Counted from the stretch's first letter, positions 8,505 to 8,839 are shown. The stretch: DNA of 32,000 bases from Fibrobacter succinogenes subsp. succinogenes S85 (GCF_000146505.1 NC_017448.1:1620001-1652000), one strand, 5' to 3'. Made by a program: numbers and translations. The notes: a model not told the origin generated them from the sequence alone.

Positions 8505-8675
8505 TTAGACACTGCCCCAATCAACATCATCTGAGTCATCAGAGTCTATACGACAGGAACATGCACAAGTGCAAGAATTGCATGAAACACACGCACAACG
8601 AGCCATAGATTGTTCATCATCACGTTCCGCGATATTACCAAACATTTTAGCATACTGATATACTGTAACGCTCAT
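8505..8675 (-). CDS. Cys-rich precursor-like peptide 2 (56 aa)
   Basis: MSVTVYQYAKMFGNIAERDDEQSMARCACVSCNSCTCACSCRIDSDDSDDVDWGSV. The ATG overlaps the stop of peptide 1 (TAATG), and GGGAGG lies 9 nt upstream. It is paralogous to peptide 1. The track reports only a longer 86-aa ORF in this frame. Confidence 0.75.
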   Translation of the reverse strand: MSVTVYQYAKMFGNIAERDDEQSMARCACVSCNSCTCACSCRIDSDDSDDVDWGSV

Positions 8676-8839
8676 TATACAGCCTCCCATTCTACATCTG
8701 AAGTACATCCGCCAGAGCAGGAGCAACGACAGCTGCACATACAGCCCGTACACTGACCTATGCAAGAACCCATAGCATTCTCTGCTGACGGCAGAACACC
8801 AAACATTTTTTCATAATCTAAAGTTGAATAGTTTACCAT
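8675..8839 (-). CDS. Cys-rich precursor-like peptide 1 (54 aa)
   Basis: Hand translation: MVNYSTLDYEKMFGVLPSAENAMGSCIGQCTGCMCSCRCSCSGGCTSDVEWEAV. AGGAG (8850..8846) lies 6 nt upstream of the ATG at 8839. It is missing from the ORF track (too short). Confidence 0.75.
   Translation of the reverse strand: MVNYSTLDYEKMFGVLPSAENAMGSCIGQCTGCMCSCRCSCSGGCTSDVEWEAV

Follow-up and report, generated by a model that had tools for sequence, protein, structure and literature searches.

Paired FibroRumin precursor genes with a radical SAM maturase gene and a UvrA-like ATPase gene in Fibrobacter succinogenes S85

A stretch of 32,000 nucleotides from Fibrobacter succinogenes subsp. succinogenes S85 (NC_017448.1, 1620001-1652000; hereafter the window, to which all coordinates refer) contains four closely spaced genes on its minus strand. 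These are, in the direction of transcription, two small genes for cysteine-rich peptides (pepA and pepB), a gene for a FibroRumin radical S-adenosylmethionine (SAM)/SPASM peptide maturase and a gene for a UvrA-like tandem ATP-binding cassette (ABC) ATPase (Table 1). The two small genes had been pointed out in a first-pass annotation, made by a model from the sequence alone, as likely precursors of RiPPs, peptides made by the ribosome and modified after translation.

Table 1. Features of the pepA-pepB locus (window coordinates; aa, amino acids; nt, nucleotides)
Feature	Position	Strand	Description
pepA	8675..8839	minus	Predicted type-A FibroRumin precursor, 54 aa (MVNYSTLDYEKMFGVLPSAENAMGSCIGQCTGCMCSCRCSCSGGCTSDVEWEAV); ATG 8839, TAA 8675
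pepB	8505..8675	minus	Predicted type-B FibroRumin precursor, 56 aa (MSVTVYQYAKMFGNIAERDDEQSMARCACVSCNSCTCACSCRIDSDDSDDVDWGSV); ATG 8675, TAA 8505
Shine-Dalgarno of pepA	8846..8850	minus	AGGAG, 6-nt spacer to ATG; read from sequence
Shine-Dalgarno of pepB	8683..8688	minus	GGGAGG, 7-nt spacer to ATG; read from sequence
-10-like box	8862..8867	minus	TATATT; candidate operon promoter
Hairpin with T-run	8441..8478	minus	CGTTGTGA...TCACAACG (8478-8450) followed by T8 (8448-8441); minimum free energy structure; between pepB and the maturase gene
Maturase gene	7020..8429	minus	FibroRumin radical SAM/SPASM peptide maturase, 469 aa; GTG start, AGGAG at 8440-8436
UvrA-like gene	4912..7038	minus	UvrA-like tandem ABC ATPase, 708 aa from ATG 7038 (710 aa from TTG 7044); overlaps the maturase stop
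Terminator hairpin	4805..4828	both	Bidirectional, GC-rich, at the predicted operon end; 10-bp stem with 8 GC pairs, T-rich tails

Both peptide genes are easily missed. At 54 residues pepA falls below the 60-aa cut-off of the open reading frame (ORF) list and is listed only at a lowered length limit; pepB is given there solely as the tail of an 86-aa ORF with a TTG start (8505-8765), whose first 30 codons are out-of-frame pepA. The first-pass annotation had described both circumstances correctly, together with the TAATG overlap of the pepA stop and the pepB start, which lies at 8677-8673, and the end-to-end alignment of the two products. This alignment has 34% identity; 18 of its columns are invariant, among them the Y..KMFG of the leader, six Cys and the C-terminal DV.W..V. 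The AGGAG site 6 nt from the pepA start was likewise found as described, whereas the GGGAGG site, placed 9 nt from the pepB start, was measured at 7 nt; apart from this spacer length the earlier sequence description is accurate. The GGGAGG site is encoded by the conserved ..EWEA.. codons of pepA (GAA TGG GAG G; 8681-8692; GAATGGGAGGCT), so that a peptide motif and a translational coupling signal are superimposed. The two genes are translationally coupled.

Both peptides match TIGR04135, the NCBIfam family “FibroRumin family radical SAM-modified Cys-rich RiPP” with a cut-off of 45 bits: pepA scores 84.2 bits (E=4e-24) and pepB 95.6 bits (E=1e-27), well beyond chance expectation, and they are the only matches to this family in the six-frame translation of the whole window. 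The enzyme gene, which starts 76 nt 3' of the pepB stop on the same strand, matches TIGR04136 (“FibroRumin system radical SAM peptide maturase”) with 973 bits against a cut-off of 400, so both marks of FibroRumin membership, a precursor score over the cut-off and an adjacent maturase of TIGR04136, are present. Homologues of the peptides carry PF27848 in precomputed annotation. The earlier reading of the genes as RiPP precursors, for which a profile search had been proposed, thereby agrees with a curated precursor family and with a radical SAM/SPASM maturase immediately downstream. It is very likely that pepA and pepB are the type-A and type-B precursors of a FibroRumin system following general RiPP logic; this estimate excludes the chemistry of the modification and the role of the ATPase. 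Both are real genes, but RefSeq already names them as FibroRumin precursors (pepA is identical to WP_081440898.1 of F. succinogenes; pepB is WP_420805939.1, a 67-aa protein carrying the FibroRumin family name), so the finding is known at the annotation level and is no discovery. The family name appears to combine two genera, Fibrobacter and Ruminococcus. As a gene-finding result the locus carries little weight, the sole practical correction being the annotated start of pepB.

The coding status of the two genes was assessed against the related loci L001-L006, whose maturases are about 83-84% identical to that of the window and which have both peptides in the same arrangement. In the peptide region the nucleotide identity is only 71-83%, with the peptides intact. 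Differences fall mostly at third codon positions (56 of 86 in pepA, 97 of 129 in pepB). The rate of non-synonymous substitution (dN) in the cores is 0 in five of six comparisons, the sixth having a non-synonymous proportion (pN) of 0.02, while the synonymous proportion (pS) reaches 0.6-1.0; replacements collect in the leaders. For pepA the whole-peptide ratio of non-synonymous to synonymous rates (dN/dS) is 0.05-0.11, and two of the three comparisons give a core dN of 0, the third, with L005, a pN of 0.02; for pepB the core dN is 0 and pS is saturated. The frames are intact in every related locus examined, across many phyla. Judged by this substitution pattern, pepA and pepB are coding genes under strong purifying selection, and the conservation check that had been proposed with the first-pass annotation speaks for the reading frames.

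Two other readings of the same DNA bear on these genes. The region might be a structured RNA or a chance pair of ORFs yielding no protein, an outcome that the first-pass annotation had named as fatal to its proposal; the small size of the ORFs, and nothing else, favours it. The substitution pattern rules this out: third-position bias, core dN near 0 and peptides that stay intact while the nucleotide sequence diverges are at odds with it, as are the two profile E-values. No Rfam family was matched anywhere in the window, on which ground the structured-RNA reading was set aside, and practically no credence is left for this alternative. The other reading concerns the start of pepB, which may lie further upstream, at the 67-aa model beginning MYFRCRMGGCIM that RefSeq adopts or at the 86-aa TTG ORF, with the TAATG overlap being incidental. 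The extended frame is indeed open in the window and in L001-L003. In L004, L005 and L006, however, a stop codon stands directly 5' of the FRMGGCIM segment and blocks any upstream extension, and all 46 distinct type-B peptides, from many phyla, start with MSA(N/T) at position 1 of the hidden Markov model (HMM); the upstream starts are therefore not conserved. The extension is, besides, merely out-of-frame pepA, and GGGAGG stands 7 nt 5' of ATG 8675. Both longer models were rejected on the homologue starts and the stops in L004-L006, and a longer pepB is very improbable. The 56-aa start proposed in the first-pass annotation is thus the best supported of the three, and the RefSeq start at 8708 is probably 11 codons too long, a start-site mis-annotation.

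The homologous peptides fall into two subtypes. Type A (38 distinct sequences, including pepA) has the consensus Mi.y....Y..mlGni.........Ci.QCTGCmC.CrCSCsgg...d.eWE.. and type B (46 distinct sequences, including pepB) the consensus MsAn...y...fG.I.......MarCACVaCNSCTCaCSCr..p....i.W. The core patterns are C(I/M)xQCTGCMC(N/S)C(R/K)CSCSGG for A and CACVACNSCTCACSCR for B. These Cys cores are near-invariant across phyla and form the most conserved part of each subtype, with more variable leaders; the leader motif and a C-terminal acidic-x-(D/E)-W motif are conserved family-wide. Of the pattern drawn earlier from the two paralogues, the conserved leader and C-terminus hold, the latter as a feature of the whole family, while the diversifying core does not: the cores differ from one paralogue to the other but are near-invariant within each subtype, with a core dN near 0.

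The two types are nearly always paired, and in essentially all two-peptide loci A stands first and B second. Eight genome loci encode one chimeric peptide: its leader is B-type, its core joins a B half (KCNCTACNSCSCGRC) to an A half (CISQCTGC), and its tail is of type A (EWEV). Full-length A-B and B-A fusions occur in the protein library. A 793-aa repeat protein (P0200) proved a spurious match and was discarded. Constant pairing, constant order and natural chimeras of the Rosetta-stone type argue that A and B work together, and we infer from the sequences that the two near-invariant cores may form a two-component product. Some loci depart from the simple pair. L042 (3276-4225) encodes four peptides, one of type A, two of type B and a fourth that is divergent and B-like, and L036 (557-1112) has three precursors; L016 (303-515) has a 68-aa B peptide with an internal core duplication, and L031 (2475-3013) a degenerate third copy split by a frameshift. 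In the Campylobacter metagenome-assembled genomes L014, L015, L017, L019 and L069 a single 54-aa peptide (MSATINQYEKLFGKI...CACFCSCSCGMCVCSCRG...AWEIC) stands with a maturase and without the UvrA-like gene; the neighbours of this minimal variant in L069 are of the housekeeping type.

The maturase matches WP_014545692.1/ACX74559.1. Its CX3CX2C motif (C103/107/110) is invariant in 19 homologues, as are the seven Cys of the SPASM domain (7-Cys motif, two auxiliary clusters); the invariant residues are C103, C107, C110, C346, C365, C368, C406, C409, C415, C419 and C440. By HMM the maturase comes closest, among characterised families, to three thioether formers, PapB, the SCIFF maturase CteB and QhpD, but all score far under their own cut-offs. 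An AlphaFold2 model (predicted local distance difference test score, pLDDT, 76.5) matches CteB (5wgg) over its full length, with a template modelling score of 0.72-0.76. Residues 7-85 of the model have a beta3-alpha3 topology with block-mean pLDDT mostly of 84-94 (67 for residues 41-50). No Pfam match to PqqD or the RiPP recognition element (RRE) was obtained at E<0.01; in the model this N-terminal domain is RRE-like, and CteB possesses such a domain. On account of the RRE-like domain and the CteB fold match, thioether cross-linking with leader recognition is the best mechanistic analogy. By this analogy, thioether links of the sactionine or ranthionine type are the most likely chemistry, and on balance a somewhat probable one.

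The UvrA-like protein corresponds to WP_014545691.1/ADL26545.1, for which one S85 annotation gives “daunorubicin resistance protein”. RefSeq calls the gene product an “ATP-binding cassette domain-containing protein” or a “hypothetical protein”, with no link to FibroRumin. It is not a canonical excinuclease UvrA (TIGR00630, 317 bits against a cut-off of 729.8). The alignment to Thermotoga maritima UvrA covers residues 3-113 and then 266-550, and by this jump from residue 113 to 266 the UvrB-binding domain is skipped and thus missing; the insertion, DNA-binding domain PF17755 is retained (37.5 bits, cut-off 23.2). Ecm16 (7sh1) aligns in one stretch, 12-696. Motifs conserved in at least 95% of 49 homologues are GPSGSGKSSLAY, LSGGE.QR, DEPL, G.SG.GK, LSGG.N.R.K, G.DEP..GL and four CxxC pairs. 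In this set the two ATPase sites are conserved, and so are two zinc modules.

The association of this gene with the cassette is close. It directly follows the maturase in all 45 A/B genome loci with enough downstream sequence; the Campylobacter chromosomal single-peptide variant and two outliers are the only loci without it. In a reciprocal scan, metagenomes were searched with the UvrA-like alignment and the 80 best loci kept. A FibroRumin maturase stands upstream of the UvrA-like gene in 53 of them, and 10 have a different cassette, made up of a 64-aa peptide, a 382-aa radical SAM/SPASM enzyme and a UvrA-like ATPase 48-50% identical to that of the window. The 64-aa peptide (MSLLNDAILSAL...GCGCTGNCGQSCSGGCETGCSGSCGRSCSGSGS; beginning GCGCTGNCGQSCSGGC and ending GCGCTGNCGQSCSGGCETGCSGSCGRSCSGS) has no NCBIfam match, and the 382-aa enzyme is PapB/CXXX-repeat-like but under all family cut-offs. 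This second cassette lies at 1540-5133 in L081 and occurs also in L077, L082-L086, L089, L103 and L104. More distant UvrA-like genes, overall 32-37% identical to that of the window, adjoin other enzymes. In L148 (417-5124) and L156 (553-5193) a Cys-rich peptide of 66-75 aa (..CSG.RSDCCTRVC..) and two adjacent ThiF/E1-like adenylyltransferase homologues accompany an ATPase 32-36% identical, and StsB/PapB-like radical SAM enzymes stand beside distant UvrA-like genes in L141 and L150. In L094 an ATP-grasp RiPP maturase adjoins a frameshifted copy, about 48% identical. These contexts argue that the ATPase clade is a recurrent partner of Cys-rich RiPP cassettes. By analogy with Ecm16 and DrrC, the protein may, tentatively, be a self-protection or handling factor that acts on DNA.

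Signals around the genes are compatible with joint expression. TATATT recurs at a similar short distance 5' of AGGAG in L001, L004 and L005, which also have that AGGAG site, within surrounding sequence that differs. The same hairpin with its T-run follows pepB in these three close relatives; at that position L009 and L024 have hairpins of different sequence with a T-rich tract, and L012 has one with an A/T-rich tail. The hairpin between pepB and the maturase gene is probably, as read from these sequences, a leaky terminator or an attenuator, an idea put forward because of positional conservation alone. The terminator at the other end of the locus lies between the stop of the UvrA-like gene (4912) and a convergent acyl-CoA dehydrogenase gene, which ends at 4642.

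The wider distribution was examined by genome scans. Patterns derived from a single maturase sequence gave no match; repetition with an alignment succeeded and yielded 64 loci, of which 62 match the maturase strongly. The taxa comprise Spirochaetes, Campylobacter, many Firmicutes, Atopobium, Coriobacteriales, Fretibacterium, Selenomonas, Desulfovibrio, Fibrobacter, Kosakonia, Bacillus and Cloacimonadota. The matches of a profile made from both window peptides lie on the maturase strand, directly 5' of the maturase. In the window the cassette (about 4.9-8.9 kb) has 32-38% GC, compared to 55-58% in neighbouring genes, and is flanked by housekeeping genes (electron transfer flavoprotein, acyl-CoA dehydrogenase) and small toxin-antitoxin-type genes. 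Among 148 flanking proteins from 25 loci the commonest families are relaxases, transposases, resolvases, ParB and helix-turn-helix regulators, with scattered defence genes. No further gene is conserved in these flanks, a classic immunity gene included, and neither exporters nor proteases are among the commonest families. The plasmid collection holds one copy, on the Campylobacter plasmid p16187MP2, which carries the full four-gene cassette beside a mobilisation gene and toxin-antitoxin pairs; a search of 50,697 phage records gave none. Judged by composition and context, the cassette is a self-contained, low-GC, horizontally mobile island.

Several observations concern the surroundings of the cassette. 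Upstream of it in the window, a PIN-domain toxin gene (9827-10231, PF13470) overlaps by 4 nt an upstream 77-aa ORF, a probable antitoxin (region 9597-10231), and a small DUF2281 protein is encoded on the opposite strand to the toxin (region 10943-11194); these toxin-antitoxin-type genes adjoin the cassette. GC-rich, partly palindromic repeats at 8990-9105, 10431-10463 and 11234-11319 contain a 33-nt unit (TTGCGnGTGCGGCGnCTGAGCACCCGCAGTGAG) three times and a 21-nt unit (AGCnAGGGGGATTCCTCCCCC) twice. They lie just 5' of the operon and around the toxin-antitoxin-like genes, look like repetitive extragenic palindromes or miniature inverted-repeat transposable elements, and have no Rfam match. In L004 (319-3807) SIR2_2 and a DUF87/HerA-like ATPase stand directly beside the cassette, and in L009 (8024-10880) an AAA ATPase, PLDc_2 and a HEPN/nucleotidyltransferase pair do so. 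The window holds a second low-GC island (16000-26000, 33-38% GC) of surface-polymer genes: two CDP-glycerol glycerophosphotransferases, a cytidylyltransferase, a Polysacc_synt flippase, two family 2 glycosyltransferases and a HAD protein. WecG, an epimerase and UDP-glucose dehydrogenase are encoded 5' of it.

Taken together on sequence grounds, pepA, pepB, the radical SAM/SPASM maturase gene and the UvrA-like ATPase gene are a four-gene, horizontally acquired operon. One promoter about 25 nt 5' of pepA would drive it, and the hairpin and T-run after pepB would allow only a part of the transcripts to reach the enzyme genes; with such partial read-through, the peptides would be made in excess. 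The RRE-like N-terminal domain of the maturase may bind the leader motif common to both peptides, Y-x2-(M/L)-(F/L/Y)-G-x-I, whereupon the CteB/PapB-like radical SAM/SPASM core would cross-link core Cys to neighbouring residues. The A and B cores would then act jointly as a two-component product, with the UvrA-like ATPase as the dedicated partner of the cassette.

Several findings weigh against parts of this picture. The spacer between pepB and the maturase gene, folded alone, has a z-score of -1.27, which is not significant. Among the equivalogs considered for the maturase (PapB NF047865, SCIFF TIGR03974, RumMC and AlbA), it stays outside the characterised ones, with 127 bits against 340 for PapB and 96.8 against 425 for SCIFF; since it fails these cut-offs, the thioether chemistry is an analogy and not a membership. 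The Campylobacter chromosomal variant has no UvrA-like gene, so not every cassette needs the ATPase. The acidic tails speak against simple DNA binding by the unprocessed peptides, and cores near-invariant across phyla are unusual for antibiotics and suit a cofactor-like or intracellular role equally well or better. In the literature searched no experimental paper on the FibroRumin system was found; PMC10288494 does not mention the system, and the radical SAM genes in PMC5442110 are not linkable to this locus.

The near-invariance of the cores, with their core dN of essentially 0, leads to a different view of the product. The matured A and B peptides may be an intracellular cofactor-like or metal- or iron-sulphur-binding pair, in the logic of SCIFF, PqqA and MftA, that works with or regulates the UvrA-like ATPase. 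CxC and CxxC spacings are characteristic of metal sites, three or four genes make up the self-contained cassette, and exporter, protease and classic immunity genes are not conserved in the flanks surveyed. A patchy distribution, low GC and association with mobile elements are nevertheless not what a housekeeping cofactor would show, and a leader/core architecture together with a maturase of predicted RRE type is classic for RiPPs; the proposal, with its putative metal binding, is rather unlikely. The mobile-element context could also mean a defence or addiction module, in which the ATPase would sense foreign or damaged DNA and the modified peptides would be the effector or toxin. The UvrA-like protein does match mad3, a component of the MADS system in PADLOC (E=4e-39, 133 bits). 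Some loci lie near SIR2_2 with DUF87, HEPN/nucleotidyltransferase, PLDc_2, toxin-antitoxin pairs, AbiLi, AbiD, AbiEi, AriA or a type I restriction endonuclease, PIN and DUF2281 genes adjoin the cassette in the window, and plasmid and prophage-like contexts exist. However, no other MADS component is present and no system-level PADLOC match was obtained; in PADLOC-DB 2.0 the peptides have no match and the maturase has only generic, viperin-level (pVip) radical SAM similarity. Strong matches to defence models concern a small minority of the 148 flanking proteins, and because relaxases, transposases, resolvases and ParB are the most frequent neighbours, the context indicates mobility rather than defence. 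With the phage records also lacking a copy, a defence module is distinctly improbable.

A broader proposal takes the ATPase as its starting point. The Ecm16/DrrC-like UvrA paralogue might organise a wider, undescribed group of RiPP cassettes whose cross-linked, Cys-rich products would act on DNA or the nucleoid. Its members would be FibroRumin, the cassette of the 64-aa peptide and the 382-aa radical SAM enzyme, the Cys-rich peptides with paired ThiF-like enzymes, and others. The products would serve either as a toxin aimed at DNA, with self-immunity of the UvrA type, or inside the cell as the effector of a mobile module for addiction or defence. This proposal is speculative and, as it stands, unlikely. 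If true, it would make FibroRumin the first among radical SAM RiPP families to have a resistance or handling factor of the UvrA type, and genomes could be mined by this mark for peptides that target DNA. For the FibroRumin cassette as such, the paired peptides, the chimeras, the absence of an exporter and the UvrA-like partner suggest a DNA-linked mode of action. The cassette is a RiPP system that horizontal transfer has spread among anaerobes of the gut, the rumen and the mouth in many phyla. Its paired near-invariant peptides, natural chimeras, exporter-free organisation and a UvrA-like ATPase shared with other Cys-rich RiPP cassettes make it attractive for characterisation. In the searchable literature, no paper describing the A/B pairing, the chimeras or the association with the UvrA-like gene was found.

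Compared to known systems, the locus belongs to the curated FibroRumin system (TIGR04135/PF27848 and TIGR04136), since both peptides and the maturase score over the curated cut-offs. The curated family makes no distinction between A and B subtypes and does not include the UvrA-like fourth gene. Among characterised RiPPs, the ranthipeptide systems SCIFF/thermocellin-CteB and freyrasin-PapB share with FibroRumin a Cys-rich core in which Thr, Asn, Ser and Gln separate the Cys, as well as a single radical SAM/SPASM maturase, whose N-terminal domain is in FibroRumin predicted to be RRE-like. Over its full length the fold matches CteB best, PapB is the best characterised HMM relative, and SCIFF also resembles FibroRumin in its highly conserved core and the lack of a transporter. 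In contrast to these systems, the FibroRumin maturase scores far under the CteB and PapB family cut-offs, two distinct obligate peptide types replace one, the Cys spacing is CxC instead of CxxxD/T, and a conserved C-terminal (D/E)-x-(D/E)-W tail and a UvrA-like partner gene are present.

Thuricin CD is a two-component sactibiotic (PMC12093266). It resembles FibroRumin in having two different radical SAM-modified Cys peptides encoded side by side with a presumed joint action. It differs in its two radical SAM enzymes and its dedicated ABC export/immunity system, whereas FibroRumin has one such enzyme, is exporter-free and has cores conserved across phyla.

The closest parallels for the fourth gene are Ecm16, DrrC and UvrA2, proteins that shield the makers of DNA-binding natural products (PMC10192343; PMC10413001); uvrA-like genes are markers of DNA-intercalator clusters (PMC10413001), and Ecm16 keeps the insertion domain and is without the UvrB-binding domain (PMC10192343). 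The FibroRumin protein is likewise a tandem ABC ATPase with zinc modules in which the insertion domain is kept and the UvrB-binding domain missing, encoded within a natural-product gene cluster. The known proteins, however, guard actinomycete makers of small-molecule intercalators, whereas in anaerobes of many phyla the FibroRumin protein accompanies two ribosomal Cys-rich peptides, and the FibroRumin ATPase has about 705-715 aa compared to 812 for Ecm16. In its predicted domain composition the FibroRumin ATPase has the class II UvrA-like architecture of Ecm16, DrrC and UvrA2, with putative roles in DNA binding and resistance.

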